Shown here: positions 15,069 through 61,650 of the stretch, in pieces
How positions within the stretch are numbered: position 1 is the first letter of the stretch
How the letters are laid out: every line of letters begins with the position of its first letter
The notes under the pieces: generated by a model
What the model was told of the DNA's origin: nothing
What the model saw: only the letters and a program-made list of their open reading frames with translations
Database searches by the model: none
Position numbers and translations under genes: made by a program
From: a virus
Taxonomy: Duplodnaviria > Heunggongvirae > Uroviricota > Caudoviricetes
Length of the DNA: 64,000 bases
Strand: one strand, 5' to 3'
Virus record (IMG/VR): IMGVR_UViG_3300017992_000017
Span: 33,418-97,417 of that record

Positions 15069-15289
15069 AGAGACTGAAGTTCTGCATCGGCGCGACCCTG
15101 TTCTGGTTGGGTCTGCCTTTTGCCGCTCTCTCCATCTTGATTATGTTTGCTCTCGGGGTGGTTGGTCTTCTGGGGATACTGGCCGTCATACTCCTCATGT
15201 CGTTTCCGTGTCTGGTGGGTGGTTGGTTGGCGACGGATGGTTGGTTGGAGAGGATCGAAGCCATGTCTGGTTTGGAGGACAAGGAGTGA
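15065..15289 (+). CDS. small membrane protein (two hydrophobic spans)
   Basis: FCIGATLFWLGLPFAALSILIMFALGVVGLLGILAVILLM. ATGA overlap. Confidence 0.5.
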   Translation: MKRLKFCIGATLFWLGLPFAALSILIMFALGVVGLLGILAVILLMSFPCLVGGWLATDGWLERIEAMSGLEDKE

Positions 15290-20147: not shown

Positions 20148-20440
20148 TGAAGCAGGAAACGATCGCACGTCTGGTTCGTGAGTGTCCAGACGATGATGAC
20201 CTGGCGAAACTCCTACACGAGCAGCTGGAATTAGAGAAGTCCATCCGTAAACGTCGGTACGAGATCCGTTCGCAAGAGGAGCAGGTGCGGAAACAGCACG
20301 AGGAAGCGATGAAGACCCTCCGTGACCAGTGGCGGCTACTTTGGGAGAACTGTCCTCATCACGAGACGACGTACCATCCCGATCCGGCAGGTGGTTCGGA
20401 CAGTCATATGGCGTGCAATCTCTGTGGGAAGGAGATGTGA
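20147..20440 (+). CDS. hypothetical protein
   Basis: 97-codon ORF. TGATG coupling to the methyltransferase. Confidence 0.45.
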   Translation: MKQETIARLVRECPDDDDLAKLLHEQLELEKSIRKRRYEIRSQEEQVRKQHEEAMKTLRDQWRLLWENCPHHETTYHPDPAGGSDSHMACNLCGKEM

Positions 20441-20655
20441 TGGTGATGACCCGAGAAGAAGCACGTGAGATTTTGGATCAGGTTGTGGCTAACCAGAAGA
20501 CGCTGACTGCCTGCTCCGGTCCCCACGAGTTCGAGCCGGTGAGTAAGGATAAGAAGTTCTCTCGTAGGTATCGTTGTAAGAAGTGTGGGGGTGAAGTTGA
20601 GAGCCTGCATAAGTACTGGTACGAGCAAGGACTGAAACACGGGAGTAGGAAGTGA
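20440..20655 (+). CDS. hypothetical zinc-ribbon protein
   Basis: CSGPHEF...CKKCGG. ATG overlaps the upstream stop. Confidence 0.4.
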   Translation: MVMTREEAREILDQVVANQKTLTACSGPHEFEPVSKDKKFSRRYRCKKCGGEVESLHKYWYEQGLKHGSRK

Positions 20656-21098
20656 AACACTCCGAGATGTGCAATCTGATGGGACAGGTAGTGACAGTAC
20701 GTCAGCAGCTCTGCGCCCGACGTCAGGGTATCCAGAAGAGATGGCTGTCCGAGAAAGTACCTGAGAGAGCTGGCTGGGTTGTCGGGTTCACGATACGGAT
20801 GGATGGACAAATTGAGCAGGGTGGTGACTTCTACAAGCCTCCGTACTTTCGGGAAACCAAGCGTACACCGTGTCTTCTGGTCGCATACTGGCCAACGGTA
20901 AAGCCTGTGCCGGTTCCTCTTGACGGATACGAGCTAGGTGGAACCCCAACGCCTCCGGACTTTGGCGGGTGGAGAGGAATCAATGAGGAAGCACTCCAGC
21001 GATACAAGCGAGAGCTCCGGGACGACATGATTCGCTGGCCTCGTGACAAGAAAGGCCGGTGGTTGAAACAGACTCCGGTACTTGGGAGCCAAACATGA
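20652..21098 (+). CDS. hypothetical protein
   Basis: 148-codon ORF. GTGA overlap. Confidence 0.45.
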   Translation: MKHSEMCNLMGQVVTVRQQLCARRQGIQKRWLSEKVPERAGWVVGFTIRMDGQIEQGGDFYKPPYFRETKRTPCLLVAYWPTVKPVPVPLDGYELGGTPTPPDFGGWRGINEEALQRYKRELRDDMIRWPRDKKGRWLKQTPVLGSQT

Positions 21099-21442
21099 TT
21101 GAGGTCGCGGTCGATTACACCGTTACGATCCTTGTCTTGGCGATTCTGGTTGTTGGCGCCGGGACGTGCGTGGCGGGTGGTCTCTGGCTGCTGGTGAAGT
21201 TCTTTGACTGGATCCTGGTCGGTGGCAATCCCCGTCTTCCTGGTCGAGGTGCTGTAGCTGTTTGTAGCCAGGGGATCGTTGGGATGATCGAGAACGACAA
21301 ACCTCAACGCGTCCATTACCCGGACGGAAACACGGGAAAAGCGTGGGTCGGACGTGCGATCTGGCCACCTGGTGTGTTTGGTGAGAAGTGGTCGAGTCGG
21401 AATCCGCGTGTGCTGTGTAGGATACCAAAGGAGATGCTGTAA
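21095..21442 (+). CDS. membrane protein
   Basis: ATGA overlap. N-terminal TM segment VTILVLAILVVGAGTCVAGGLWLLV. Confidence 0.45.
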   Translation: MIEVAVDYTVTILVLAILVVGAGTCVAGGLWLLVKFFDWILVGGNPRLPGRGAVAVCSQGIVGMIENDKPQRVHYPDGNTGKAWVGRAIWPPGVFGEKWSSRNPRVLCRIPKEML

Positions 21443-22363
21443 ATGAAAGCCAAGAACGTCAAGTCAGTTATCCGTAGCAAGATCAACCATTTCCTGAAGC
21501 ATGTTCGGGACGAGGATGTCCGGAAGGTTCTGGAGAAGAACATCGTTGTTACTGGTGGAGCGATCGCGTCGCTGCTTCTCGGCGAAGAGGTGAACGATTT
21601 CGACATATATCTCCGGTCCAAGGAAGCTGCGTTGACGGTGGCTCAGCACTATGCAGCCGAGTTCGCCAATAATTCGCCACCCAGGCACCGCAATTCAAGC
21701 CAGAAATGCAACGTCGTCGTGGAGGAGCTGCCGGATCGCATACGCATCAAGGTCCAGTCAGCGGGCATTGCATCAGAGCAAGGCGACGAAGACTACGAGT
21801 ACTTCGAGACAACCAACCCCGAAGACGCCGACGCGCACGAGTATGTCAGCAAGGTACTGTCTATCGCACAAGATGCTGAGCCGGATAACGAGAAACCGAA
21901 ATACAGGCCGGTCTTCCGCACGGCCAACGCAATCACACTGAGCGACAAGGTCCAGATCGTGACCCGGTTCTTTGGCGAACCGGACGAGATCCACGAGAAC
22001 TACGACTTTGTACACGTCACCAACTACTGGACCAGCTGGGATAACAAATTGGTGCTTCGGCCGGATGCGATAGAGGCTCTCCTTGCTCGCGAGCTCCGGT
22101 ACGTCGGCAGTAAGTACCCCCTCTGTTCCGTGATCCGCACACGTAAGTTCATCCAGCGGGGGTGGGCCGTTACAGCTGGTCAGTACCTCAAGATGATTAT
22201 GCAGCTCCAGGAATTAGACCTGCATGACATACGTGTGCTGGAGGAGCAACTGACCGGTGTGGATGCAGCGTATTTTGATGAAGTCCTGGCTGCTCTGAAG
22301 AAGAAAGACGCGAAAAGGGTTGACGCGGCGTACTTGGTTGAGCTGATCGACAGGATCTTTTGA
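21443..22363 (+). CDS. hypothetical protein with a possible Pol-beta-superfamily nucleotidyltransferase motif
   Basis: VVTGGAIASLLLGEEVNDFDIYL resembles the GG...D.D head of CCA-adding/poly(A) polymerase-type NTases. Motif-level evidence only. Confidence 0.3.
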   Translation: MKAKNVKSVIRSKINHFLKHVRDEDVRKVLEKNIVVTGGAIASLLLGEEVNDFDIYLRSKEAALTVAQHYAAEFANNSPPRHRNSSQKCNVVVEELPDRIRIKVQSAGIASEQGDEDYEYFETTNPEDADAHEYVSKVLSIAQDAEPDNEKPKYRPVFRTANAITLSDKVQIVTRFFGEPDEIHENYDFVHVTNYWTSWDNKLVLRPDAIEALLARELRYVGSKYPLCSVIRTRKFIQRGWAVTAGQYLKMIMQLQELDLHDIRVLEEQLTGVDAAYFDEVLAALKKKDAKRVDAAYLVELIDRIF

Positions 22364-22884
22364 TGCACGACACACTCTACAACCTCGAACTGGTGAGAGA
22401 AAAGCTAGACCTATGTGATCCTGACGTTTTTACCGAGGTGGTGCACAAGGAGACAAAGGCGCTGACCACGTATGCTCGTGATCTTGTCGGGGACGATCTT
22501 GCGCAGGACGTGGTACAAGAGGTTTGGTTGCATGCGTGGATGAAGCGACACGAGTACGATGGTAATCCCAAACTAATTCGTTGGTGGTTGTGTAGGTTTG
22601 CTTACTACTACGGACTGAAGATCCAGAGGGAGGAGGCACGACAGAGACACTACCATCTTTTCCCAGCCGAACCGGATCCGAAAGAACCTGTGGAAGATGT
22701 CGTGCTTTGTAGTCTCGTTGCGGAGTTTGTCCAGGGTCTTCCACCGAAACAGGAGCAAGCTGTACGTTTATGGTCCTTGGGATACACGTACAAAGAAATC
22801 GCTGGCCAGATGAACATCTCAGTCTCAGCTGCCACGTCGAATGTCAGTCTTGCACGTAAGAAGCTACACGAATTACTCAACTAA
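22363..22884 (+). CDS. sigma-70 family (ECF-like) sigma factor
   Basis: Region 2-like AQDVVQEVWLHAW. Region 4 HTH LPPKQEQAVRLWSLGYTYKEIAGQMNISVSAATSNVSLARKKL. Confidence 0.7.
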   Translation: MHDTLYNLELVREKLDLCDPDVFTEVVHKETKALTTYARDLVGDDLAQDVVQEVWLHAWMKRHEYDGNPKLIRWWLCRFAYYYGLKIQREEARQRHYHLFPAEPDPKEPVEDVVLCSLVAEFVQGLPPKQEQAVRLWSLGYTYKEIAGQMNISVSAATSNVSLARKKLHELLN

Positions 22885-22896
22885 GCAGGAGCCTAC

Positions 22897-23457
22897 ATGA
22901 CGTTCGGACGTGACGACCCCGTTGACCTGACATCCCATGAAGTGTTTGAAGCCGTGGTTCGGAAGTACAAGAACTGGATGTACCGGCTGGCTGGCCAGTA
23001 TGTGGAGCAACCTGCCGACCAGGATGACGTTGTGCAGTATGCGTGGTTGATCGTGTGGCAGGGACGGCACAAGTATACCGGTCCTGTGGGTAAGCTCCCG
23101 TTCTGGTTGAAGAAAGCAATACGCTACGCCGCACTGAATATCTACCGACAGCACCAAAGATTCCCGATGACAGGCTGTGATTTCTCGCGGGAGATCGATC
23201 CGTGTGCAGCAGAACCGGCAGTAGGTAGGGAGAAGGCCGAGCAAACGGAGGATCAGCACCAGCAAATCGACCGTGCTATGGCAACATTTCGGTTTCTCCC
23301 CAAACAACAACGGAGTGTCGTCAGGTTACGGATGGAAGGTCTACGGAATGAGGATATCGCCAAGAAGATGCGCCTCTCCAAGTCGTGCGTAGGCTCCCAT
23401 CTTCATCGTGCCAGGAAGAAGATCCGGCGTGAGATCGAGGAATCTCCAACTCTCTAA
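22897..23457 (+). CDS. sigma-70 family (ECF-like) sigma factor, second copy
   Basis: DQDDVVQYAWLIVWQ. Region 4 LPKQQRSVVRLRMEGLRNEDIAKKMRLSKSCVGSHLHRARKKI. Confidence 0.7.
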   Translation: MTFGRDDPVDLTSHEVFEAVVRKYKNWMYRLAGQYVEQPADQDDVVQYAWLIVWQGRHKYTGPVGKLPFWLKKAIRYAALNIYRQHQRFPMTGCDFSREIDPCAAEPAVGREKAEQTEDQHQQIDRAMATFRFLPKQQRSVVRLRMEGLRNEDIAKKMRLSKSCVGSHLHRARKKIRREIEESPTL

Positions 23458-23485
23458 AACTCTAAGACTACAGAATCGTGTGAAT

Positions 23486-24463
23486 ATGGCTGACAAGAAC
23501 ACTTCCTACACAAGCGCTGACGTCCTACCGATCAAGGTAGTCCTCGATACCCAGACCGTGGACCATATCCGTCGTTACCGCAGGATTCCACCGATCCACG
23601 CTCAGGTCATCCCGACGAATCGCTGCAACAGAAACTGTCCAATGTGCAGCTGTAGCGAACGGACCAAGAACCACGAGATGGATCTGTTCGACGTCGAGAC
23701 CATAGCCAAGGATCTCCGTCGACTGGGGTGTCGAGCCGTGACGTTGACCGGGGGTGGTGAGCCGTTAGTGCATCCGCAGATCGTCGACATCATCCGGCTC
23801 TTTCACGTCCTGGATATCGAGATCGGGATGACCACCAACGGGATGCTGTTGCACGAGCTCCCCGAGGAGGTAGTCGAGCTGCTGACCTGGTGTCGGATCT
23901 CGAACGACGACTCCAGACACATGTCCCCTCTGTACATGGCCAGTCTCGACAAGGTGTTTGTGGGAAGCTCCGTAGGCTGGGGTTTTTCGCACGTGGTCTC
24001 CAAGACCCCTAACTTCGAGGAGATTGCCAGGGTTGTACGGTACGCCAACGAGTGGAAGATCACCCACGTTCGCCTCATCGCTGACCTGTTCGAGCCAAAG
24101 GCCGTCGATCTTACGAAGGTGCGGCAGTATCTCTATGAGGAAGGGATCGACGACTCCCGGGTCATCTACCAGAACCGCCAACAACCAGTCCGGGGAGGTC
24201 CTTGCTACATCGGGTACTTGAAACCCCTGATTTCTGCCGACTGCAAGGTATATGCGTGCTGTGGGGTGCAGTACGCGTTGGATCCCCCTACCCGTGACCT
24301 ACCTCCGGAACTCTGTATCGGGGACGCGTTGGACCTGGGTGCGCTCTATGACAGCAGCGACGTACAGCTCAACGGGGAGATATGCAAGACCTGTTACTAC
24401 GACAATTACAACAACCTTCTCGGGTCGCTCCTGAAAGACACCACGCACGAGGAGTTTGTATGA
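23486..24463 (+). CDS. radical SAM enzyme
   Basis: IPTNRCNRNCPMCS (CxxxCxxC), GGGEPLV glycine motif, extra C-terminal Cys cluster (CKVYACCG, CKTC). Confidence 0.8.
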   Translation: MADKNTSYTSADVLPIKVVLDTQTVDHIRRYRRIPPIHAQVIPTNRCNRNCPMCSCSERTKNHEMDLFDVETIAKDLRRLGCRAVTLTGGGEPLVHPQIVDIIRLFHVLDIEIGMTTNGMLLHELPEEVVELLTWCRISNDDSRHMSPLYMASLDKVFVGSSVGWGFSHVVSKTPNFEEIARVVRYANEWKITHVRLIADLFEPKAVDLTKVRQYLYEEGIDDSRVIYQNRQQPVRGGPCYIGYLKPLISADCKVYACCGVQYALDPPTRDLPPELCIGDALDLGALYDSSDVQLNGEICKTCYYDNYNNLLGSLLKDTTHEEFV

Positions 24464-25143
24464 CCTTCGCTATCATCTCCGGTGCTCGATCTGGCACGCA
24501 CATGCTCCGACTGGCGTTGTCGCAGCATCCGGACATCCACGTCTCTCACGAGTTGTTGAATCCTGATCGTTTAGGACACCGGTTTGGCGAGGAGACAGCG
24601 GAGACGATCATCCGGGAGTGGCAGCAAGAGCACTACCGGGAGGTCAAACAGCTAGGGTCTTTGTTGCATCGGGATCTTTACAACCGATCGGAGGAGATAC
24701 CTGGCGACCCCTGGAGAGATGTTCGTCGGAGTCACGCCAAGTTTATCAGCCTCTACCGGTACAACCTCCTCCGCAAGGTTCTCTCCGGGAGGACTGCGTT
24801 TGTCCACAAGAACTGGCAGTGCACGTCTCCCAGGACCAAGGAGTTGCCACCTATCACTCTGGATCCGGACCATCTTGAATCACATTGTCGCAAGGAGTGG
24901 AGGTCTTTCGGTCTGGTGGACGCGAGACTGCCACGTCACTTCGTCATCTCTTATGAAGATCTGGTGAGTGACTGGACGTATCACACGATGGCCATGCAGG
25001 AGTATTTGGGGGTGACGCCGGTTCAGCTCCACCCCCGAACTCACAAACAAGAAACACGCAGCCTCCGGGAAGCCATTGCGAACTACGACGAGATAGCTGA
25101 CCGGGTTTGTGAAATGGGTTGCGAAGACTGGTTAGAGGAGTAG
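24460..25143 (+). CDS. sulfotransferase (Stf0-like)
   Basis: ATGA overlap. FAIISGARSGTHML (5'-PSB-like loop) and ISLYRYNLLRKVLS (3'-PB-like R...S). Confidence 0.5.
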   Translation: MTFAIISGARSGTHMLRLALSQHPDIHVSHELLNPDRLGHRFGEETAETIIREWQQEHYREVKQLGSLLHRDLYNRSEEIPGDPWRDVRRSHAKFISLYRYNLLRKVLSGRTAFVHKNWQCTSPRTKELPPITLDPDHLESHCRKEWRSFGLVDARLPRHFVISYEDLVSDWTYHTMAMQEYLGVTPVQLHPRTHKQETRSLREAIANYDEIADRVCEMGCEDWLEE

Positions 25144-25145
25144 TC

Positions 25146-25892
25146 ATGCCAACTGTTAGCGTAATCTTGACGTCCCACAACCACGGACCGTTTCTGCGTC
25201 AAGCCATCGAGAGCGTGCTGGCTCAGACGTACACGGACTTCGAGCTATTGATTCTGGATGATGCGTCTACGGATGGGTCAGCAGACATTGCACGGGAGTA
25301 TGTCGGATCCAACGCCTTTCTCCAGGACTACCAAGAAAAGGCATCCAGTCTCGGGGTTGTCCTGAACCGTAGCATTCGTCTGGCTCGTGGAGACTACTGG
25401 GTCTGGGCACCTTCAGATGACGTGCTCAAACCGGATCTCCTAGAGAAGAAGATGGCCACGGCACAGGAGCATCCCGGCGCCGTCCTCTACTCAGACTGGG
25501 AGTACATCAATGAGCGGGGGGACGTGACCGGGACCAAACGTCTACCGGAATGGACCGCCGAGGATATCGCAAGGATGGTGTGGGAGAAGTCCATGCTCGG
25601 GTTCACCGGCATCTGGATACCCATGTCCGTCTTCGATGAGGTGGGGAACTGGCCGACGCACATGCTCTTCTCCGAGGACTTCTCCTGGTTCGTTCGAGCT
25701 ACGATCCACGGAATACCTTTCATCAACTGTCCTGAGGTCCTCTTCCAGAAACGGCTCAACCCTCTGCAGACAGCCAGTAAGGTCGGGACGAAACGCATCC
25801 TTGAGCTGGTACCCGCAATCCATAGTGAGCTCCGTTGGTACCAACATCTCTACCAACAACACCATCCTGACTACGAGGTGCCGAGTCAATGA
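25146..25892 (+). CDS. GT2 family glycosyltransferase
   Basis: VSVILTSHNHGPFLRQAIESVLAQTYTDFELLILDDASTDGS. Confidence 0.8.
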   Translation: MPTVSVILTSHNHGPFLRQAIESVLAQTYTDFELLILDDASTDGSADIAREYVGSNAFLQDYQEKASSLGVVLNRSIRLARGDYWVWAPSDDVLKPDLLEKKMATAQEHPGAVLYSDWEYINERGDVTGTKRLPEWTAEDIARMVWEKSMLGFTGIWIPMSVFDEVGNWPTHMLFSEDFSWFVRATIHGIPFINCPEVLFQKRLNPLQTASKVGTKRILELVPAIHSELRWYQHLYQQHHPDYEVPSQ

Positions 25893-26728
25893 GGGTTGTC
25901 TTCTTCTGGGGAACGTCTCCGTTGTCGTGGATGAGGTACGCCACGATCGCCAGCTTCCGGAAACTCAATCTGGACTGGGAGATCGAGCTGTATCTCTACC
26001 ACCACCAGCACGTCAAGAAGTACTGGACCGACTCCCCGGTGCAGGATTTTTCCGAGTACCGAGGAGCCGACTACTTTCCTTTGCTCACGGACCTTGGTGT
26101 TCGGGTCATTCCGTGGGAGTTGCCGGAGGAGCTGCAGGACAAGAAGCACGTCATCGGTCCTTCCCACGCCAGTAACTTCTTCAAGTGGAGCTGGCTGTCC
26201 GAGAACGTGGGTGTCTACTGCGACCTGGACATCCTCTGGACGTCCCCGCTTACGGACTGGCTTGACTGGGTGGCCACGTACGATGCTGCTCTTGCTTACA
26301 CGCCGGAGTACTTCTCGATCGGCCTTCTCTGGTCGGGACAGCAGCCGAACCCCGTCTACAAGGATATCCTGGCCGAGAGTTACCGCACCTTCACGCACAC
26401 CAAGTACCAGAGTGCCGGGGTCGTGGCACTCTATCGGTTACTGCAGAAGTTCGACCCAGCGTACCGTGAGCACCCGTGGGATAAGGATCTGCTCGCGAGG
26501 TACGACAACGCATACCTCTTCGACATGGACTGGGTCTATCCTTGGCGATTCAACCAGATGGAGGAGGTTTTCAACAAGAAGCACGAGGTCATCCCACCGA
26601 TGTGCAAGGGGATCCACTGGTACGCCGGGTCTCCAATCGCACAGAAGTACAACAACCTGATCACCGAGGACACGTTGGATCAGTACGACAATACGTTCAC
26701 CCATTTCGCGAGACGGGTCCTTGGTTGA
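25889..26728 (+). CDS. DXD glycosyltransferase (GT32 / Gly_transf_sug-like)
   Basis: FKWSWLSENVGVYCDLDILW. Paralog of the next gene. Confidence 0.45.
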   Translation: MRVVFFWGTSPLSWMRYATIASFRKLNLDWEIELYLYHHQHVKKYWTDSPVQDFSEYRGADYFPLLTDLGVRVIPWELPEELQDKKHVIGPSHASNFFKWSWLSENVGVYCDLDILWTSPLTDWLDWVATYDAALAYTPEYFSIGLLWSGQQPNPVYKDILAESYRTFTHTKYQSAGVVALYRLLQKFDPAYREHPWDKDLLARYDNAYLFDMDWVYPWRFNQMEEVFNKKHEVIPPMCKGIHWYAGSPIAQKYNNLITEDTLDQYDNTFTHFARRVLG

Positions 26729-27536
26729 TCCTAAGAAACATATCGTCTTCTTCTGGTCCGGTCGTTCGCTGTCTTGGCTGCGATACCTGACGATCTACTC
26801 GTTTCGTGTCCTGAACCCGGAGTGGAAGATCTCCCTGTACCTGTGTCATACGAGTCTGGTGACGACTTGGCTCGATCATAACCGTCTCGACTTCAGTGAG
26901 TATGAAGGTGAGGACTATCTTCCCAGGCTCCAGTTTCTAGGGGTCGATGTCCAGCAGTGGGAGTTGCCTCCGGAGATCTGTAGTGCCACACCTCCCCACG
27001 CGTGCGATCTATTCGAGTGGCAGTGGCTGTCGGAGAACGTCGGGTACTACGCCGACATGGACATCCTGTGGGTCCGACCGATGAAGGTCCCGGACTCTGA
27101 TGCAGCGATTGTGTACGGCAAGCAATTCAGTATCGGCTTGGTGTGGTCGGGTGTGGCTCCGAATCCTATGTTCCGGGACATCTACCAGGAGAGCCTCCGT
27201 ACGTACACACCCGCCGTCTACCAGAGTGCCGGGGTCGTTCCCATCTACCAGCTCTTAGGACATTCCGGTCCCGAGGTTGACCTGTCCATACCCTGGTTCG
27301 AGCGATTACGAGAGAAGTATCCCACGGTCTCCAAGCTGCCGTTCCCCATGATTCATCCGTGGGATCATGAGCAGCTGGAAGCCATGTACGACGAGCTACA
27401 TACCGAGGTACCAACAGACTGTGTCGGAATTCATTGGTACGGTGCTGCTCCAAGGTCCCAGACGTTCAACCAGGAATACGGACCGAGGACGCAGCAGGAT
27501 AATACGCTAAGTCATTTTGCGAGACGGGTGGCATGA
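26721..27536 (+). CDS. DXD glycosyltransferase (GT32-like), tandem paralog
   Basis: FEWQWLSENVGYYADMDILW and colinear similarity to 25889..26728 (VFFW, SIGL.WSG..PNP, YQSAGVV, GIHWY, HFARRV). Apparent TTG start. Confidence 0.45.
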   Translation: MVDPKKHIVFFWSGRSLSWLRYLTIYSFRVLNPEWKISLYLCHTSLVTTWLDHNRLDFSEYEGEDYLPRLQFLGVDVQQWELPPEICSATPPHACDLFEWQWLSENVGYYADMDILWVRPMKVPDSDAAIVYGKQFSIGLVWSGVAPNPMFRDIYQESLRTYTPAVYQSAGVVPIYQLLGHSGPEVDLSIPWFERLREKYPTVSKLPFPMIHPWDHEQLEAMYDELHTEVPTDCVGIHWYGAAPRSQTFNQEYGPRTQQDNTLSHFARRVA

Positions 27537-28303
27537 AACCCCTGGTGTCCGTGGTGGTGGCGACACGCAACAAGGACAAGATCCTGGCCAAGGTGCTGGC
27601 TAGTATCTACCGTCAGTCGTGTGCCTATCCCTTGGAGGTCGTGGTCGTTGATGACGGATCCACGGACAACACCCGGGAGACCTGCCTCGCGTACCCGGAC
27701 TTGCGATACATCAGGTTGGAGGGTGGGGAGTACCGAAACTCCTGCTTTGCTCGAAACTGTGGGTACTGGGCAGCGAACGGCATGGCGTTGGTACTGCAGT
27801 CGGATGATGTGGTGCATGTCTCCGAGCGTGCCGTCGAGAAGCTGGTCGATCGGTTGGGACCTGGCGAGTTTACGATTGCCACGGTCTACAACTACGACCC
27901 CGAGACCAACGCACCGGTCCTGATGTACACGGGGACGGGATGGAAGCGACCGTTCTTCTTCCTGGGAGCGATACGGACCGAGGACATCTATGCAGTCGGT
28001 GGGAATGAGGAGGAGCTATTGGATGTGGGGGTTGGGTTCGATGATACGTGGTTGGCCGACTGTCTCACGCTAGGACAAGGACTAACCCCGGTATTTATGC
28101 ACACCGTTCTTGGATATCACCAGAATCACCGTCCCCTGATCCCCGGCATCATGAGGGAGAAACACGCCGACGCGAAACTCTGGTACGAGGCAAAGGTGCG
28201 TACGGGAAGGTTCGTGACCTCTACCGGCGCGTGGACAGAACGAATGGATCCTGACGAATGGGTACGGCATTATCACGTGTGTCAAGATCTATCGAGGTAC
28301 TAA
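27533..28303 (+). CDS. GT2 family glycosyltransferase
   Basis: VSVVVATRNKDKILAKVLASIYRQSCAYPLEVVVVDDGSTDNT. Confidence 0.75.
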   Translation: MKPLVSVVVATRNKDKILAKVLASIYRQSCAYPLEVVVVDDGSTDNTRETCLAYPDLRYIRLEGGEYRNSCFARNCGYWAANGMALVLQSDDVVHVSERAVEKLVDRLGPGEFTIATVYNYDPETNAPVLMYTGTGWKRPFFFLGAIRTEDIYAVGGNEEELLDVGVGFDDTWLADCLTLGQGLTPVFMHTVLGYHQNHRPLIPGIMREKHADAKLWYEAKVRTGRFVTSTGAWTERMDPDEWVRHYHVCQDLSRY

Positions 28304-28407
28304 TGTCCGAAGACGTCTACTACCTGACTCCGAAAGCCATCATGGTCGGGGTGCTCAGTGAATATATCCCGCATGAAGAACTTGTAAACGCAGAGGACGA
28401 GGAATGA
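28303..28407 (+). CDS. small ORF (34 aa), translationally coupled on both sides
   Basis: TAATG overlap with the GT2 stop and ATGA overlap with the neuB start. Translation MSEDVYYLTPKAIMVGVLSEYIPHEELVNAEDEE. Not on the ORF track (under 60 aa). Confidence 0.3.
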   Translation: MSEDVYYLTPKAIMVGVLSEYIPHEELVNAEDEE

Positions 28408-29279
28408 GCACCACGATCGTAGCTGAGATCGGGATCAATCACAACGGCTGTCTCGCATTCGCCAAAGAGATGATCGACGCAGCGTATGAGGCTGGTGCCG
28501 ACGTGGTGAAATTCCAGAAGCGTACCCTGCCTGCCGCCGTTCCCATCCACCAGCGACACGCACTCAAAGAGACGCCTTGGGGACAGATGACGTACCTCGA
28601 CTACCGAAACAAGCTGGAGTTCGGGTTCGAGGAGTACTGCACCCTCGATCGGTGGTGTGCCAGGTACCCGATCTCCTGGACTGCGTCGGTGTGGGATGCG
28701 GAGGCTGCCAAGTTCATCGCTCAGTTTGACGTGCCGTACCTCAAGATCCCCTCAGCTGCCATTACGGACGCTCGACTCCTAGATGTCGTACGAGCCACGG
28801 GTAAGCCGGTCGTGATGAGCACCGGCATGTCCACGCTGGAGGAGGTAGACGCTGCGATCAACGTGCTCATGGGTAGCCGGTACTGTGACGGAGACTCCTG
28901 CCGTCGTACGCGTCAGCTACCACCGGCTCAGCTCACGCTCCTGCATTGTGTGAGCACCTATCCGACAGCCATCCCAGACATCAACCTCCGGGTCATGGAC
29001 ACGCTACGAGCTCACACGGGACTCCCAGTAGGCTATTCAGGACACGAGGTAGGGATGGCTGTGAGTATTGCCGCTGTTGCTCGTGGTGCCTGCATGATCG
29101 AGAGACACTTCACCACGTCGCAGACCATGTGGGGTACGGATCAGCGAGCATCTATGGAGCCGGGGGATTTTGCTGCACTGGTCAACGGTATCCGATCGGT
29201 GGAGAGAGCACTCGGTGATGGGGTGAAGATTGTCTGCACCCGAGAACTTCCTATTCGACAGAAGCTACGGGGTGTGTGA
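28404..29279 (+). CDS. neuB: N-acetylneuraminate (nonulosonate) synthase, NeuB family
   Basis: IVAEIGINHNGCLAFAKEMIDAAYEAGADVVKFQ and downstream GYSGHE. At 291 aa it seems to lack a full C-terminal SAF domain. Confidence 0.85.
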   Translation: MSTTIVAEIGINHNGCLAFAKEMIDAAYEAGADVVKFQKRTLPAAVPIHQRHALKETPWGQMTYLDYRNKLEFGFEEYCTLDRWCARYPISWTASVWDAEAAKFIAQFDVPYLKIPSAAITDARLLDVVRATGKPVVMSTGMSTLEEVDAAINVLMGSRYCDGDSCRRTRQLPPAQLTLLHCVSTYPTAIPDINLRVMDTLRAHTGLPVGYSGHEVGMAVSIAAVARGACMIERHFTTSQTMWGTDQRASMEPGDFAALVNGIRSVERALGDGVKIVCTRELPIRQKLRGV

Positions 29280-31055: not shown

Positions 31056-31060
31056 CCGTG

Positions 31061-31133
31061 GCCACCGTAGCTCAATTGGCAGAGCAGCGGATTTGTAATT
31101 CGCCGGTTGTGGGTTCAAGTCCCTCCGGTGGCT
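31061..31133 (+). tRNA. tRNA-Thr (anticodon UGU)
   Basis: Hand-folded cloverleaf. Acceptor GCCACCG/CGGTGGC, D arm GCTC-AATTGGCA-GAGC, anticodon arm GCGGA-TTTGTAA-TTCGC, T arm GTGGG-TTCAAGT-CCCTC (one T:T mismatch), discriminator T. No encoded CCA. Confidence 0.85.
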
Positions 31134-31150
31134 TTGACAAGGAGAAGAAC

Positions 31151-49160: not shown

Positions 49161-49294
49161 TCTGACGTGTACCCGTTCCCGTTCCCATTCTGACATGCAC
49201 CTGTTCCCGTTCCCATTCTGACATGCACCTGTTCCCGTTCCCATTCTGACATGCACCTGTTCCCGTTCCCATTCTGACATGCACCTGTTCCCGT
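49159..49294. repeat. 28-bp tandem repeat, ~5 copies: ATTCTGAC(A/G)TG(C/T)ACC(T/C)GTTCCCGTTCCC
   Basis: Head-to-tail copies starting at 49159, 49187, 49215, 49243 and 49271 (last one partial). Noncoding, since the period is not a multiple of 3. Confidence 0.85.
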
Positions 49295-49388: not shown

Positions 49389-49982
49389 TCAACAGTGGCG
49401 AAAGATATGCAACTGCCCACTCGGTCCCTGGAGACTGTAGTTGTCCCCGATGAAGATGTCCCGTGCGAATTTCTCATAGTCGATGTAGAACTGGAGGTAG
49501 TCGGGGACTTCGTAGCACTCGTCGAACAGGTATTCGGCGTAGTCTTGCTCCGAGTCCCATTCCCCGCAATACGCTTCCTCGAAACCCTCAACCGTGGCGT
49601 GGTCGATCCCCTCATGGTCGACATAGCACGCGTAGGCTTCCCCGTACTCAGCGATCTTGGCTGCGAGGTCGGCCACTTCCTCGATTCCCTGGTACTCGGC
49701 GATCTGCACCCCGCCGAACCCTTCGTAGTCGTGGATTGCCCACTCTTCGGAGCTTGGGACCTTCCCGTCCTTGCACTCCTCACACCCTGCACCCTCACAC
49801 TCCGGACAGTCCACAAGCACGTTCGGTTCCGGGGAGGATCGGAGGATGACCCGGATCTCCTCCATGATCTCCTCAGCGTCCCGGTCTGCATCGATCCAGG
49901 CACCGTGCAAGATCCCAGCATTGTAGCTGGCCAAGCAGGCGACATAGATTCTCGGGGTATCGTCGACTTGTGTGATGGTCAT
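49389..49982 (-). CDS. ardA: ArdA-family antirestriction protein with a Cys4 insertion
   Basis: PRIYVACLASYNAGILHGAWIDA, EEWAIHDYEGF, FEEAYCGEWDSEQDYAEYLFDE, YIDYEKFARDIF. Insertion is CPECEGAGCEEC. Confidence 0.8.
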   Translation of the reverse strand: MTITQVDDTPRIYVACLASYNAGILHGAWIDADRDAEEIMEEIRVILRSSPEPNVLVDCPECEGAGCEECKDGKVPSSEEWAIHDYEGFGGVQIAEYQGIEEVADLAAKIAEYGEAYACYVDHEGIDHATVEGFEEAYCGEWDSEQDYAEYLFDECYEVPDYLQFYIDYEKFARDIFIGDNYSLQGPSGQLHIFRHC

Positions 49983-52208: not shown

Positions 52209-52436
52209 TTATCTGATACTGTTTCCGACTGCCAGAAACGCGCCGACCAGTTCCTGAGACGGATGGACAACGCGTGGCTCGACCAGGGGAAAGTCACGGT
52301 GGTGGTTCTCGATCGTATCTTGCCGGTACCGAAACGCGACTCTCCGATCCCCGGTCACAAGCTCCGTCACCCATGCACCCTGACGATATCCCACGTCAGA
52401 GAACACTTTGACGGCAAACAGGTCTTTCCGGATCAT
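52209..52436 (-). CDS. hypothetical protein
   Basis: ATG 52436 lies inside the conserved 20-nt initiation cassette, directly downstream of tRNA-like unit 2. Confidence 0.4.
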   Translation of the reverse strand: MIRKDLFAVKVFSDVGYRQGAWVTELVTGDRRVAFRYRQDTIENHHRDFPLVEPRVVHPSQELVGAFLAVGNSIR

Positions 52437-52475
52437 GATGTACCCTTTCTCAGTCTCTCAAGTGAAGGTGTAGGC

Positions 52476-52583
52476 TGGGACGGCAAGGGACTCGAACCCT
52501 GTACCCGGTTGCAGTCGTGGAGATGAGCACTTTCCCCGGCGACTGCTTGTGCTCGCCGAATAGTCTCCCGTTAGACCCGTCCC
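52476..52583 (-). ncRNA. tRNA-like RNA, unit 2 (108 nt)
   Basis: Minus strand: perfect 7-bp acceptor GGGACGG/CCGTCCC, discriminator A, T-loop GGGTTCGAGTCCC. Internal helices GGAGA/TCTCC and GAGCAC/GTGCTC. No canonical D arm or anticodon loop. Confidence 0.5.
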
Positions 52584-52595
52584 GTGATGTAGGCG

Positions 52596-52676
52596 TGGGT
52601 AGGTGAGGCTGCGAACCTCAACTGCCATGGTCGTCCGGTACCTGGACTGACTGGCGTGTCCCGTCGAACCCTACCC
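52596..52676 (-). ncRNA. tRNA-like RNA, unit 1 (81 nt)
   Basis: Minus strand: perfect 7-bp acceptor GGGTAGG/CCTACCC, T arm TGAGG-TTCGCAG-CCTCA, discriminator A. The 5' GTTCGACGGGA resembles the tmRNA D-loop analogue. The central hairpin GTCC-AGGTACC-GGAC lacks U33 and R37. Confidence 0.55.
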
Positions 52677-52681
52677 GTGAT

Positions 52682-52787
52682 GTATTATGGTGCCGGGGGA
52701 TCGAGCAAGCAGGCTATACCTCGCAAGTCCCGACTCCCCCGGACACCCTTGTTTGTGATCTTGTTCCCGCTCGCACCACCATAATAC
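52682..52787 (-). other. long structured element upstream of the tRNA-like units
   Basis: 11-bp outer stem GTATTATGGTG/CACCATAATAC encloses an 8-bp stem CCGGGGGA/TCCCCCGG. The 3' side reads ...TCCCCCGGCACCA. Confidence 0.35.
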
Positions 52788-52924
52788 CAGTATCGCCAAA
52801 CAAGACAAGACCCCGACAGTGATTTTCCGAGAATCGCTATAATTGGCTGGTTTCGTGGGTATAGTTTCTAGAAAAGTTTTCACTGGACACTTTAGAAAAC
52901 GGGAATCATACCTGCCTTGCGCAT

Positions 52925-53233
52925 AGTACCCAGTCTGACATGCACCCGTTCCCATACCTGTACCCGTTCCCTCATGCACCCACGGGCCTGTTCTCTCCTG
53001 CACCCACGCGAGGACCTGCACCCATGCACCCGTTCCCATACTTTCACTACGTAGGAAAACAAGGCATCCCAGTGAAATACCTGTTCCCGTTCCCATTCTG
53101 ACGTGTACCCGTTCCCGTTCCCGTTCCCGTTCCCATTCTGACGTGTACCCGTTCCCGTTCCCGTTCCCATTCTGACGTGTACCCGTTCCCGTTCCCGTTC
53201 CCATTCTGACGTGTACCCGTTCCCGTTTCCTGT
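52925..53233. repeat. (GTTCCC)n-ATTCTGACGTGTACC array, n = 2,4,3,3, with degenerate copies
   Basis: Clean units span 53081-53233. Decayed copies (TCTGACATGCACCCGTTCCC etc.) span 52925-53040. Same unit family as 49159..49294. Confidence 0.85.
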
Positions 53234-53235
53234 GG

Positions 53236-53349
53236 CCAGACCGAGCTTCCAGAACCAGACCGAGCTTCCAGAACCAGACCGAGCTTCCAGAACCAGACCG
53301 AGCTTCCAGAACCAGACCGAGCTTCCAGAACCAGACCGAGCTTCCAGAA
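53236..53349. repeat. 19-bp tandem repeat x6: CCAGACCGAGCTTCCAGAA
   Basis: Six identical head-to-tail copies plus a degenerate seventh (53350-53370). Confidence 0.9.
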
Positions 53350-53393
53350 CCAGACAGAATCCTCCCAGAATCGATTCTCCCCCAGCGCATAGA

Positions 53394-58178: not shown

Positions 58179-58364
58179 ATGCACTTCAATATCTTCTTCA
58201 CCCTCAAAGGACCTGGCGGGAAGATCGATGCGCCGAACAACAGCAACCCGGTTGAATGCAAGGACCTATACACCCTACTACACGATCTGGCCGAGCAACT
58301 ACCAAATAACTGGCTGGTAGAAACGATCGGCGTACGCATCGAAAAGACGGGGGGGACATGGTAG
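58179..58364 (+). CDS. hypothetical small protein
   Basis: 61-codon ORF. Confidence 0.4.
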   Translation: MHFNIFFTLKGPGGKIDAPNNSNPVECKDLYTLLHDLAEQLPNNWLVETIGVRIEKTGGTW

Positions 58365-58915
58365 ACACACAAGCACAGGGAGTCGCACCCGCAATCTGCC
58401 TCATCAACCCGAAGACGGAAATCAACGTCGGGATGGTCGTACGTCTGGCATCCTGTTACGGAATCTCGCAGGTGTGGTGGACCGGGCACAGAGTCAACTT
58501 GGATCGCAGCGGAAAGCGTCGACTCCCACGAGAAGAGAGACTCCGGGGGTATCAGGACGTGACCATGATCCAACATGATCGTCCGTTCGATCACTTTCCT
58601 GGTGCAGTACCGGTGGCTGTTGAGGTACGCGAGAACGCCGAGAACCTCCTTGCCTTCGAGCACCCGGAGAACGCCTTGTACGTGTTTGGTCCGGAAGACG
58701 GGGGACTACGAGCGGTGGACGTGCGTCATTGCCATCGCTTCCTGATCATCCCCACGGACCACTGCCTCAACCTCGCAACTGCTGTGGCTACCGTGCTGTG
58801 GGATCGGACCGTGAAGGCGCATCTGAACGGCGACGTATCCCGTGTTGGAAGGTCCCCGGCAACGTGCGAGAACCGAGGATTTGTAGACAGTCCGATCGTA
58901 GAGGAGGTACCGTGA
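58358..58915 (+). CDS. SPOUT-class (SpoU/TrmH-like) RNA 2'-O-methyltransferase
   Basis: LINPKTEINVGMVVRLASCYG, ALYVFGPEDGGL, FLIIPTDHCLNLATAVATVLWD (the three SpoU motifs). Confidence 0.7.
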   Translation: MVDTQAQGVAPAICLINPKTEINVGMVVRLASCYGISQVWWTGHRVNLDRSGKRRLPREERLRGYQDVTMIQHDRPFDHFPGAVPVAVEVRENAENLLAFEHPENALYVFGPEDGGLRAVDVRHCHRFLIIPTDHCLNLATAVATVLWDRTVKAHLNGDVSRVGRSPATCENRGFVDSPIVEEVP

Positions 58916-59100
58916 AAAGACTACTCGACTACCTGGCTATCGTGATTGTTGCTGCGATCTATCTGGCAGTGGCGACGTTGGCATTTCTCGCTTTCACAGG
59001 GTTGATTATTCACGAGCCGGAGACAGCTGCTGGATGCACGGCGATTACTGCTGTGGTCGTACTGTTTATCTGGTCAATGCACAGACTGGAGAACAGGTGA
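58912..59100 (+). CDS. small membrane protein
   Basis: GTG in a GTGA overlap after a GAGGAGG SD. Two hydrophobic spans. Confidence 0.4.
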   Translation: MKRLLDYLAIVIVAAIYLAVATLAFLAFTGLIIHEPETAAGCTAITAVVVLFIWSMHRLENR

Positions 59101-59420
59101 TGCAAGAACGTACTGTAGATGTCGATTGTGTCCGGTTCAGTTGCTTCTCCGGGGCGCCAAAGCTCGTGCAGGACTACCTCATCCTGCGAGAGAACGAGAC
59201 CCTGGACGCGTGGGTTCTCGAGTTCAAGCGTGGGGTGACCGGATACGAGTCTCTCATCGTGACCGGACCAGGCGCCGCAGATCTGGAGAGACTGTGCGAG
59301 GTCGGATGGTGGGCCTGTGCTGGTACGACGGGTTGCTGGGATAGTCTCTTTGTACATCCACTCCAGCTGAAACGGGTCTTTGAGGATCTAGGACTTCTCG
59401 AAAAGGAGACGACGCAGTGA
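59100..59420 (+). CDS. hypothetical protein
   Basis: ATG overlaps the upstream stop (TGATG). Confidence 0.45.
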   Translation: MQERTVDVDCVRFSCFSGAPKLVQDYLILRENETLDAWVLEFKRGVTGYESLIVTGPGAADLERLCEVGWWACAGTTGCWDSLFVHPLQLKRVFEDLGLLEKETTQ

Positions 59421-60175
59421 AATTCGATGACCTAGACGCCAAGATGCGGGTCTTCGAGACTGTGGCCGATACCTGCGTTCTGCCTGAGCTCTACATGGTT
59501 GCTCGACTGGATGGACGTAGCTTCACCCGGCTGACGAAAGAGACCCACCCATTTGACACGCCGTTTGACAGCCGGTTTCGGGACATGATGGTCGCAACCA
59601 CGGAATCGCTGATGACCTGCGGCTTCCGGGTGATCTACGGGTATACCGAGAGCGACGAAATCTCCTTGCTGTTTGCACGTAACGAGAACACGTTTGGCCG
59701 GAAACTGCGTAAGTACAACTCAGTACTGGCAGGAGAAGCGAGTGCCAAATTCTCATTACTGTGTGGGAGCGTCGGGGCATTTGACTGTCGTGTCTCCCAG
59801 CTGCCAACCCCAGATCTGGTGGTTGACTACTTTCGCTGGCGTAGTGCGGACGCCACCAGGAACGCCTTGAACTCCTGGTGTTACTGGATGCTAAGAAGAA
59901 AGACCGGCAAGAGTAAACGCCAAGCCACGTCACAGCTCCTTGGACTCTCGATAAGCGAAAAGAACGAGCTGCTCTTCCAGTACGAGATCAACTTCAACGA
60001 TCTCCCTGCGTGGCAAAAACGTGGGGTCGGCGTGTACTGGGAACACTACGACAAGCCGTCCGTGAACCCGGTTACAGGCGAGTGTGTTGTGGCCGGTCGT
60101 CGTCGCATTCGGAGAGAGTATGAGCTGCCAATGAAGGACGAGTACAGCGAGTTCATTCGTGCTATTCTCGGTTAG
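59417..60175 (+). CDS. Thg1-like protein (tRNA-His guanylyltransferase / 3'-5' polymerase family)
   Basis: MKFDDLDAKMRVFE...YMVARLDGRSFTRLTKE...PFDSRF...GYTESDEISLLF...FGRKLRKYNSVLAGEASAKF matches the Thg1 N-terminal catalytic core (RiDGr.F, SDEiS, GR..Ki.S). Confidence 0.85.
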   Translation: MKFDDLDAKMRVFETVADTCVLPELYMVARLDGRSFTRLTKETHPFDTPFDSRFRDMMVATTESLMTCGFRVIYGYTESDEISLLFARNENTFGRKLRKYNSVLAGEASAKFSLLCGSVGAFDCRVSQLPTPDLVVDYFRWRSADATRNALNSWCYWMLRRKTGKSKRQATSQLLGLSISEKNELLFQYEINFNDLPAWQKRGVGVYWEHYDKPSVNPVTGECVVAGRRRIRREYELPMKDEYSEFIRAILG

Positions 60176-60645: not shown

Positions 60646-60674
60646 TTGCCAGACACCTCGTTTTCGGGTATAAT
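60646..60674 (+). promoter_or_regulatory. near-consensus sigma70 promoter upstream of the integrase
   Basis: TTGCCA (60646-60651), 17-nt spacer, TATAAT (60669-60674). AAGGAGA SD and ATG at 60706. Confidence 0.55.
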
Positions 60675-60705
60675 ATGGGTAGTTCAAGATCCAAGGAGAA
60701 CCCCC

Positions 60706-61650
60706 ATGTACGACCTGATCCCAGCAGCTTCCAATACCCTCGTCCAGCACGACTACAACCGGCTTGTGGCGCAGTGGCTGTCCGGACGCAAGGATACCAC
60801 GCTCAACACGTACAAGTCGGCTCTCCGGGACTTTGCGGCCTGGTTGGACGTCCGATCCATGGCCGAAGTCGCTGAAAGTCTCCTCACGCTGGATGCTGGC
60901 CAGGCGAACGCGAAGATCCTGGACTACAAGAACGCTCTGATCGCTAGAGAGCTGGCACCTGGGACGGTCAACCTGCGTCTTGCTGCGATCCGGTCCTTGG
61001 TGTCTCTGGCTGCCATGCTCGGGATTGTGTCTTGGACGGTCCGGATCAAGGGACTGAAACAACGAGTCTACCGGGACACGCGAGGTCCTGGTGCTGACGG
61101 ATACCGATCGATCGTCTCCAACCTTGACACGACCACGAAACCCGGCAAACGGGACGCGGCGATCGTACGGCTCCTCTACGTGCTGGGTCTCCGTCGTGGT
61201 GAGGTCGTCTCCCTGGATCTGGAGGATGTGGACTTCTCAGCTGGACGCGTCGAGATCTTGGGGAAGGGACGTCTGCAGAAGGAGTGGGTGACCATCCCCC
61301 CGGAGACGCTCGAGACGCTCCGTGAGTGGGTGGATGCTCGGGGGTGGCACTGCGGTCCTCTCTTCGTCTCCTTGGCCAGAGGGAGCTACGGGAAGCGGCT
61401 CACGGGTCGTAGCGTGGCCAGTGTGGTACAGAAGGCTGGTGTCGCGGCTGAGCTCGATCGACCGGTGCGTCCCCATGGTCTCCGGCATGCTGCTATCACC
61501 GAGCTCCGGGACCAGGGCGCCAGCGATCGGGACGTGATCCGGTTCTCTCGGCACCGCTCTCCCGACGTCCTGCAGTACTATGATGACAACCGAGACGATA
61601 TCGCTGGGAGACTCGCTACCAAATTGGAGATACTCGATGAAAGCCGCTGA
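60706..61650 (+). CDS. int: tyrosine recombinase / phage integrase (XerC/D-like)
   Basis: N-terminal SAM-like core-binding region. Catalytic residues in LGLRRGE (R), HGLRHAAIT (HxxR), RHRS...LQYY (H, Y). Confidence 0.85.
   Translation: MYDLIPAASNTLVQHDYNRLVAQWLSGRKDTTLNTYKSALRDFAAWLDVRSMAEVAESLLTLDAGQANAKILDYKNALIARELAPGTVNLRLAAIRSLVSLAAMLGIVSWTVRIKGLKQRVYRDTRGPGADGYRSIVSNLDTTTKPGKRDAAIVRLLYVLGLRRGEVVSLDLEDVDFSAGRVEILGKGRLQKEWVTIPPETLETLREWVDARGWHCGPLFVSLARGSYGKRLTGRSVASVVQKAGVAAELDRPVRPHGLRHAAITELRDQGASDRDVIRFSRHRSPDVLQYYDDNRDDIAGRLATKLEILDESR

Follow-up and report, generated by a model that had tools for sequence, protein, structure and literature searches.

The closest described phage analogue of the RNA pair considered here is the pair of T4 RNAs encoded by rnaC (species 1, 139 nt) and rnaD (species 2, 119 nt). 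The RNA pair in question, designated U1 and U2, lies on the minus strand of a 64,000 nt stretch of tailed-phage DNA (positions 33,418 to 97,417 of IMGVR_UViG_3300017992_000017, Caudoviricetes); this whole stretch is referred to as the window and its numbering is used throughout. U1 and U2 are tentatively interpreted as tRNA mimics. Like them, the T4 RNAs form an adjacent same-strand pair, are phage-encoded and non-decoding and are ∼80–140 nt in length. The T4 rnaC product carries a canonical T-arm (CCGGG-UUCGAAU-CCCGG) beside an imperfect terminal stem, whereas the acceptors of U1 and U2 are perfect helices of 7 bp; the rnaD product shows no tRNA features in its fold, whereas U1 and U2 fold as full four-way junctions. 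The two T4 genes end a cluster of eight true tRNAs, whereas U1 and U2 stand alone behind a predicted promoter and head a protein operon. There is no sequence similarity between the two pairs, and a T4-type grouping is a functional one rather than a sequence family; from sequence and folding, U1 and U2 have three of the T4-type properties, in that they are phage-encoded, non-decoding and partly tRNA-like. To our knowledge, the function of rnaC and rnaD is still unknown.

Several other systems invite comparison. A canonical tRNA shares with U1 and U2 the 7 bp acceptor, the discriminator, the abutting T-stem, a T-loop starting with UUCG, the G53–C61 pair and the four-way junction; it differs in that the units have a D-arm of 12–14 nt, an arm of 32 or 59 nt without a loop containing U33 and a purine at position 37, and no linker at positions 8–9. 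The tRNA-like domain of transfer-messenger RNA (tmRNA), including the jakobid form that consists of this domain only, resembles U1 and U2 in joining an acceptor and a T-arm to a long helix where a tRNA has its anticodon arm, although tmRNA is ∼360 nt in length compared with 81 and 108 nt for the units. The mascRNA and menRNA transcripts and the tRNA-like RNAs of gammaherpesviruses are released from longer transcripts through RNase P and RNase Z cleavage and receive CCA, but are not known to be aminoacylated; they resemble U1 and U2 in being small and cloverleaf-like without an anticodon and differ in belonging to eukaryotic systems. The YrlA Y RNAs are noncoding mimics of the D/T elbow that serve as substrates of tRNA enzymes and also occur in phages, and in M. 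smegmatis the YrlA RNA undergoes RNase P cleavage and CCA addition (PMC4201824). YrlA ends in a Ro-binding stem, its ‘acceptor’ is a closed stem-loop and the Ro60 gene is adjacent, whereas U1 and U2 have free ends at the acceptor, relative to which YrlA is permuted. Neither by sequence nor by model do the YrlA, mascRNA or herpesvirus RNAs match U1 or U2. Phage and viral tRNA mimics are already known and tRNA-like phage RNAs have precedent, so that U1 and U2 would not form a new category.

Anatomy, folding and paralogy of U1 and U2

U1 (52676–52596, minus strand) is an 81 nt tRNA-shaped RNA. Its acceptor, GGGUAGG/CCUACCC (52676–52670/52603–52597), is a perfect helix of 7 bp, against which a D-like hairpin of 4 bp (GUUC-GACG-GGAC, 52669–52658) is directly placed. 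A linker AC leads to a long arm of 32 nt (52655–52624; ∼11 bp arranged as 4+3+4, with bulges A and CA and the loop AGGUACC), which is separated by a variable region AGU from the T-arm (UGAGG-UUCGCAG-CCUCA, 52620–52604); the latter abuts the acceptor, and the unit ends in discriminator A (52596). U2 (52583–52476, minus strand) is a 108 nt tRNA-shaped RNA with an equally perfect 7 bp acceptor, GGGACGG/CCGUCCC (52583–52577/52483–52477). The D-like hairpin GUCU-AACGGG-AGAC (52576–52563) is followed by a 1 nt linker U, a long arm of 59 nt (52561–52503; ∼18 bp arranged as 6+7+5, with internal loops and a 9 nt loop), the dinucleotide AC and a T-arm (AGGG-UUCGAGU-CCCU, 52500–52486) with the canonical loop UUCGAGU. 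Two extra nucleotides, UG, lie between T-stem and acceptor (52485–52484), so that the T-stem can be drawn either with 4 bp and a 2 nt UG bulge or alternatively with 5 bp and an 8 nt loop; discriminator A is at 52476. Neither unit encodes CCA, and neither does the canonical tRNA-Thr of this phage.

The sequence ACAUCAC stands 5′ of both units (directly before U1 at 52677–52683) and GCCUACA 3′ of both, with one added C after U1. The 12 nt spacer CGCCUACAUCAC (52584–52595, minus strand) serves U1 as 3′ trailer and U2 as 5′ leader, and ACATCACGGG is found exactly twice in the window, namely at the 5′ ends of U1 and U2. A first-pass annotation of this DNA had described two adjacent units with perfect 7 bp acceptors, discriminator A and T-arms, lengths of 81 and 108 nt, no encoded CCA and shared flanks; all of this was recovered on reading the minus strand, the one amendment being the extra C after U1. 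It had also stated that a canonical D-stem and anticodon loop are missing. There is indeed no anticodon arm with 5 bp and a 7 nt loop, but a short D-like hairpin does exist in each unit.

Folding with RNAfold gave a four-way cloverleaf for each unit, with acceptor pair probabilities of 0.92–1.0. The minimum free energy (MFE) of U1 was −35.8 to −37.2 kcal mol−1 (z = −3.06) and that of U2 was −42.9 kcal mol−1 (z = −1.77). Both cloverleafs were unchanged when the entire predicted leader of 346 nt was folded, in which three independent modules were formed. An alternative pairing in U2, GAGCAC/GUGCUC, costs ∼6 kcal mol−1, and the sole candidate pseudoknot pairing of U2 competes with its MFE fold.

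The window was then scanned on both strands for a T-stem with a TTCR loop, an adjoining 7 nt strand and the perfect complement of this strand 55–160 nt upstream. The scanner returned U1, U2 and one false match within the polymerase gene. Single matches arose at a rate of 1.4 per window in dinucleotide shuffles (n = 100), while adjacent matches on the same strand occurred in none of the 100. U1 and U2 are paralogues. Of the 25 positions from −7 to +18, 20 are identical, and ACGGGA in the D-like region is common to both. About six stem positions were changed between the two copies with pairing retained. On going from U1 to U2, the acceptor pairs 4:69 and 5:68 change from U–A to A–U and from A–U to C–G, respectively, the T-stem exchanges G–C for A–U and A–U for G–C, and the D-like hairpin exchanges C–G for U–A and U·G for C–G. 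This covariation is confined to a comparison of two copies within one genome, and the sequences of the central long arms are unrelated. Taken as they stand, U1 and U2 are probably genuine structured RNA elements.

Comparison with tRNA and other RNA classes

Both units possess the 7 bp acceptor, the discriminator A73 and a T-arm next to the acceptor, directly abutting it in U1 and with the UG bulge or the 8 nt loop alternative in U2. The T-loop of U2 is canonical, whereas that of U1 (UUCGCAG) has C58 rather than A58. A canonical anticodon arm is absent, with G33 and C37 in the loop AGGUACC of U1 and a 9 nt loop on the 59 nt arm of U2. The loop centre of U1 reads GUA (Tyr) and the loop of U2 contains GUG and UGC; these triplets were given no weight because every loop has a central triplet.

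ARAGORN and Rfam, which the first-pass annotation had named as checks, called neither unit a tRNA or tmRNA. In the window ARAGORN reported only 11767–11835 and 31060–31134, and no tmRNA. Rfam gave no match at the units at gathering thresholds, and a permissive search of 52300–53000 (E ≤ 10) yielded only a chance-level match to mir-230 (E = 1.9, far under the gathering score). A canonical tRNA (RF00005) was rejected on the lack of any ARAGORN or Rfam match even at E ≤ 10, and an intron-containing tRNA on the lack of a bulge-helix-bulge motif and on the sigma factors of the phage, which indicate a bacterial host. An allo-tRNA of the 8/4 or 9/3 type was rejected since positions 8 and 9 are unable to pair, and an attP remnant since neither acceptor strand is missing and 8 kb separate the integrase gene from the locus. 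A YrlA-type Y RNA was set aside for want of a neighbouring Ro60 gene and of an Rfam match and because the RNA ends form an acceptor rather than a Ro-binding stem. Large ornate phage RNAs gave no Rfam match, and no reverse transcriptase was seen among the open reading frames (ORFs) scanned, which speaks against a retron RNA or reverse-transcriptase primer.

Proposed non-decoding tRNA mimics and the alternatives

Our preferred reading, held tentatively, is that U1 and U2 are paralogous phage-encoded non-decoding tRNA mimics that are excised and act via the acceptor end or elbow. Each unit retains the ‘top half’ of a tRNA, that is, a free-ended 7 bp acceptor, discriminator A, a T-arm and a D-like hairpin with ACGGGA. 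The place of the anticodon arm is taken by a long rod, the predicted geometry of which is incompatible with ribosomal decoding. In tRNAs the acceptor/T-arm half is read by RNase P, RNase Z, the CCA-adding enzyme, T-loop and D-loop modification enzymes, Thg1-like proteins and EF-Tu, and several toxins modify or cut tRNA ends. Because the top half is intact and the decoding half is a rod too long for the ribosome, the mimics would engage factors of the acceptor end and elbow.

A sigma-70-like promoter was predicted upstream of the units by a consensus scan (52781–52808, minus strand; −35 TTGTCT, 16 nt spacer, extended −10 TGgTATTAT), which gave three sites in the region versus 0.7 expected. Transcription is predicted to start near 52775 with a leader of 346 nt. 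Within this leader and ahead of U1, RNAfold places a hairpin of 59 nt (52689–52747, minus strand; z = −2.87 for the 117 nt stretch), the base of which is a 12 bp helix GGUG(U)CCGGGGGA/UCCCCCGGCACC, followed by A and then UAAUACAUCAC. A nested hairpin of 106 nt had been proposed at this place in the first-pass annotation; a strong structured hairpin is present, but it spans 52747–52689 only, and the outer part of the proposed structure overlaps the promoter-like site. The hairpin contains GUCGGGAC, which is similar to GACGGGAC of U1 when the two are read side by side, and it may be a degenerate third module. Each of the three consecutive structured modules is followed by a motif ...UACA(U/C)C...CAC. 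The junction motifs are 100% conserved between the two units despite the divergence of the units themselves, and because the motif stayed identical while the units diverged we infer selection on it as a site of processing or binding.

The 39 nt downstream of U2 (52437–52475, minus strand) hold the 3′ trailer GCCUACACCUUCAC... together with the ribosome-binding region for the next gene. No gene was called at 52437–53440 on contigs identical to the window. The first gene of the operon encodes a 75-residue protein (52209–52436, minus strand; gene calls on identical contigs) without a match in Pfam, NCBIfam, PHROG or the PDB. Because no terminator-like site was predicted between U2 and this gene, the units are predicted to be co-transcribed with it; the earlier proposal of a cluster between repeat arrays and a protein gene, transcribed together with the latter, is thus supported, with a promoter-like site on its 5′ side. 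After this protein, the operon on the identical contigs encodes proteins of 96, 110, 108 and 255 residues and closes with a 197-residue ArdA anti-restriction protein (49389–49982, minus strand; Pfam PF07275 on the identical protein in contigs L007 and L008). The proteins neighbouring the units have no Pfam family and no recognisable domain. An early operon that ends in ArdA has a counter-defence flavour, which suggests support for the mimic reading.

Under this reading host RNA polymerase would transcribe the units early from the sigma-70-like promoter, as the first part of an operon extending from the hairpin through U1, U2 and the 75-residue protein gene to ArdA. Host RNase P would cut on the 5′ side between ACAUCAC and GGG, an RNase Z-type activity would cut on the 3′ side between A and (C)GCCUACA, and the excised units would then gain CCA; cleavage would also set the 5′ end of the downstream mRNA. 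On balance, U1 and U2 would probably be released in this manner as discrete small RNAs. Once released, they could serve as decoys or sponges that occupy host factors attacking or inspecting the ends of tRNAs (such as tRNA-targeting defence nucleases and toxins) or, alternatively, as substrates of tRNA-end enzymes, including the Thg1-like 3′–5′ polymerase and the SPOUT methyltransferase of the phage itself.

The first-pass annotation had listed both of these enzymes, and both are encoded in the window. The Thg1-like enzyme (59417–60175, plus strand) matches Pfam Thg1 (4.7e-30), Thg1C (3.7e-17) and PHROG 4717; its best solved relative is an archaeal Thg1-like protein (PDB entry 5axk, 3.4e-27), and homologues were found in 152 phage records, mostly of large Bacillus, Caulobacter and jumbo phages. 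In complexes of Thg1-like proteins with tRNA (the 5axk series) the acceptor end and elbow are reportedly recognised and the anticodon is not. The SPOUT methyltransferase (58358–58915, plus strand) belongs to the SpoU family (SpoU_methylase, 9e-14) and shows a weak TrmJ-like affinity. Both genes lie ∼6 kb from U1 and U2. A possible nucleotidyltransferase had been listed as well; the only nucleotidyltransferases found were CMP-sugar (sugar-nucleotide) cytidylyltransferases, and this entry was not supported. It is an improbable further step to regard anticodon-less early tRNA decoys as a new class of phage RNA counter-defence against effectors that read the acceptor end or elbow. If they were, the targets would be effectors such as acceptor-end nucleotidyltransferase or pyrophosphokinase toxins and tRNA nucleases, and the decoys might be maintained or marked by the Thg1-like polymerase and the SPOUT methyltransferase, so that RNA and enzymes would form one module.

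A number of observations weigh against interpreting the units as mimics. Position 58 in the T-loop of U1 is C, and this loop may close to a triloop; U2 carries two extra nucleotides between T-stem and acceptor, and neither unit has the linker nucleotides 8–9. Two of the three conserved D-region G residues of U1 are predicted to be paired, which leaves an authentic D/T elbow uncertain, and the z-score of U2 is modest (−1.77). None of the collections searched yielded a homologue, so that independent covariation across genomes is lacking, and relatives that share the flanking genes (67–92% amino-acid identity) do not carry the RNA cluster. The sole close homologue of the Thg1-like enzyme in IMG/VR (63% identity) is encoded on the phage contig L049, and neither a tRNA nor a tRNA-like gene lies within 10 kb of it there; co-occurrence of a Thg1-like enzyme with a tRNA-like gene is not a rule. 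Finally, a decoy-type function is purely our own inference, and an improbable one.

The search for relatives covered the flanking genes as well as the RNAs. The upstream gene for a 315-residue protein is present on five IMG/VR contigs (L001–L005, 67–79% identity), one of which also shares the gene for a 164-residue protein; none of the five has similarity to the intergenic region or contains the units. Homologues of the 164-residue upstream protein (69–92% identity) belong to a lineage of higher GC content with a different downstream region. The 75-residue protein has two diverged homologues (62 and 46% identity) in tightly packed gene arrays, and no RNA region was found at either locus. Exact and degenerate patterns derived from the positions shared by U1 and U2 were scanned against IMG/VR, JGI metagenomes and GTDB genomes and returned only identical copies of the phage (L044, also L007 and L008) and accidental matches to genuine tRNA-Pro genes, to repeats in coding sequence and to a single element of high GC content in Solirubrobacteraceae; a blastn search of the region against 50,697 phage records returned nothing. 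As far as the searched collections show, the RNA cluster is a singleton.

Two side observations were made in the course of this search. In the higher-GC relatives a conserved noncoding region of ∼1 kb with an AT-rich promoter-like core replaces the repeat and tRNA-like region, and on three contigs (L002 9120–10361, L051 235–870 and L050 1957–2427) the 164-residue protein is extended by or fused to a Cys-rich zinc-ribbon-like C-terminus. The 25 nt pattern shared by U1 and U2, ACATCACGGGNNGGGTNNNACGGGA, recurs in a conserved ∼40 nt element, ACATCACGGGGCGGGTC[A/C]TACGGGA, on high-GC actinobacterial contigs [L045 at about 3339–3363 (minus strand), L046, L047 (JGI) and L048 at 2983–3007 (minus strand), the last from a Solirubrobacteraceae metagenome-assembled genome] the flanks of which are mutually unrelated. 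On these contigs no T-arm or acceptor partner follows the element and no Rfam or ARAGORN match was obtained; the element is probably a chance match amplified by relatedness.

Four alternatives to the mimic reading were ranked by estimate. The strongest, although unlikely, is that U1, U2 and the hairpin constitute a cis-acting structured 5′ leader, which would affect the stability or translation of the mRNA for the 75-residue protein and the genes after it, or RNase P/RNase Z punctuation, the pieces of which would be functionless once excised. Punctuation of transcripts by tRNAs is familiar from mitochondria and from MALAT1/mascRNA, and in the present locus no terminator intervenes between the promoter-like site ahead of the modules and the ribosome-binding site that comes after them; the modules fold independently of each other and are joined by conserved motifs that would suit processing signals. 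Homologues of the 75-residue protein gene occur elsewhere without such a leader, however, from which it follows that the gene does not need one, and a perfect 7 bp acceptor, discriminator A and a T-arm in two diverged copies exceed what a stabilising hairpin would require.

Slightly less likely still is that the units are pseudo-tRNAs, decayed or disrupted by insertion and now functionless, which remain from a phage tRNA cluster and have had their D and anticodon regions replaced. The phage does possess an aberrant tRNA (11767–11835) whose acceptor strand GGGACGG is that of U2, the cluster is missing in relatives and both T-arms are imperfect. Decay should nevertheless erode helices, and here the acceptors are perfect and the differences between the copies compensated; the replacing arms are long stable helices and the flanking motifs are identical in both copies.

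That U1 and U2 are a minimal tmRNA-like RNA, reduced to the tRNA-like domain and binding SmpB or alanyl-tRNA synthetase so as to disturb or replace trans-translation, is very improbable. The mRNA-like domain has been lost in jakobid mitochondrial tmRNAs, and the overall predicted shape of the units, with acceptor, D-loop analogue, long helix and T-arm, is that of an isolated tRNA-like domain. The 10-mer UUCGACGGGA of U1, located beside the 5′ acceptor strand, is identical to nucleotides 16–25 of E. coli ssrA (checked against the annotated ssrA of 5426 genomes). In tmRNA the CGGG(A) of the 5′ motif UUCGACGGG forms helix P2a with the strand just 5′ of the T-arm. This motif is present in U1 only, and UUCGACGGGA likewise; U2 has ACGGGA alone, and the motif lies 8 nt nearer to the acceptor than in tmRNA. 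No strand complementary to CGGGA precedes either T-arm, the segment instead folding into a local hairpin with covariation between the two units. Of the likeness to the tmRNA D-loop analogue noted in the first-pass annotation, the identical 10-mer in U1 thus survives and its equivalent in U2, its position and its pairing do not. Pair 3:70 is G3:C70 in both units and not G3:U70, the alanine identity pair of tmRNA; there is no tag reading frame with a resume codon and no set of pseudoknots, for which 81 and 108 nt are too short; the ORFs scanned yielded no SmpB domain; and neither ARAGORN nor Rfam (E ≤ 10), the library of which includes tmRNA families, recognised a tmRNA. On these grounds tmRNA membership, as implied by the earlier label ‘tmRNA-TLD-like’, was rejected.

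The weakest alternative, chance inverted repeats in a repeat-rich intergenic region, is barely credible: single scanner matches do arise in shuffled windows and in the polymerase gene, but no shuffle produced an adjacent pair, the 5′ positions and flanks are shared as given above, and both units are four-way junctions with pair probabilities near 1.

Surrounding elements, source phage and implications

The aberrant tRNA at 11767–11835 (plus strand) was reported by ARAGORN as ‘tRNA-???’ with a 2 nt anticodon and scored 41 bits against the Rfam tRNA model; the Rfam mascRNA model gave a weak match to this tRNA and none to U1 or U2. It has a G1·G72 mismatch, an anticodon stem of 4 bp, a 6 nt loop CUGUAA and U73, and its 5′ acceptor strand GGGACGG is identical to that of U2. 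Thg1-like enzymes, one of which this phage encodes, repair defects such as a mismatched first pair during the 5′ editing of mitochondrial tRNAs. The stretch 58358–60175 (plus strand), in which an unknown protein of 128 residues (59034–59420, plus strand) is encoded between the SPOUT and Thg1-like genes, is a possible tRNA-modification and repair module; an integrase gene follows (60646–61650).

Upstream of the promoter lie noncoding tandem arrays (53083–53355, minus strand) in which TRF distinguished 4.1 copies of a 34 nt repeat, rich in GGGAACGGG, and 6.3 copies of a 19 nt repeat; the latter array is perfect (CCAGACCGAGCTTCCAGAA, 53236–53355) and noncoding. A terminator-like hairpin (53082–53062) separates the arrays from the promoter, and the ∼250 nt between hairpin and promoter contain scattered GGGAACGGG motifs. 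The arrays are counted here as neighbours only, without implying that they belong to the RNA unit. Repeat copy number is the sole difference between the window and the otherwise identical contigs L007 and L008. GGGAACGGG occurs in 22 copies in the window, all on the minus strand, versus 1.1 expected. The copies are found at 49172–49270 and 52945–53224 (minus strand), mostly in arrays of 28 and 34 nt repeats, with single copies at 39297 and 48359, and runs such as GGGAACGGGAACGGGAACGGG match a G-quadruplex motif on the sense strand. The array at 49.2 kb sits within an ORF, close to its 5′ end, and a homologue of this ORF aligns solely to the portion beyond the array; on our own reading a strong promoter-like TTGACT-17-TACAAT precedes the ORF. 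Two further tandem arrays, at 41174–41450 (27 nt × 10.3) and 42873–43483 (24 nt × 25.5), have periods that are multiples of three, sit within ORFs of the minus-strand early block and presumably encode repeat proteins.

The window belongs to a novel large tailed phage with a bacterial host; the host is taken to be bacterial because the phage carries two ECF-like sigma factors. Their genes are adjacent (22360–23457, plus strand) and lie inside a glycan module (15208–29279, plus strand) that encodes NeuB, two CMP-sugar cytidylyltransferases, a sialyltransferase-family protein, several GT2 glycosyltransferases, a sulfotransferase and a radical SAM enzyme. The family A DNA polymerase has only ∼30% identity to that of the nearest cultured phages. 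A sliding clamp, a UvsX-like recombinase, SbcCD-like nucleases and DNA methyltransferases are also encoded, and from ∼34 to 55 kb the window carries small minus-strand genes, mostly without a family match.

Should U1 and U2 turn out to be only processing punctuation or dead tRNA genes, they would be of local interest only. Many anti-phage systems cut or block tRNAs, to which phages respond with replacement tRNAs (PMC11555353, PMC13096335). If the mimic reading is true, the answer of this phage to an attack on tRNA would be a decoy and not a spare tRNA. The units are small and have exact predicted ends, and they occur in a phage with a Thg1-like enzyme, a SPOUT methyltransferase and a mismatched tRNA, which makes the idea testable in vitro. 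A true mimic would also provide a model for the function of the unexplained species 1 and 2 RNAs of T4.

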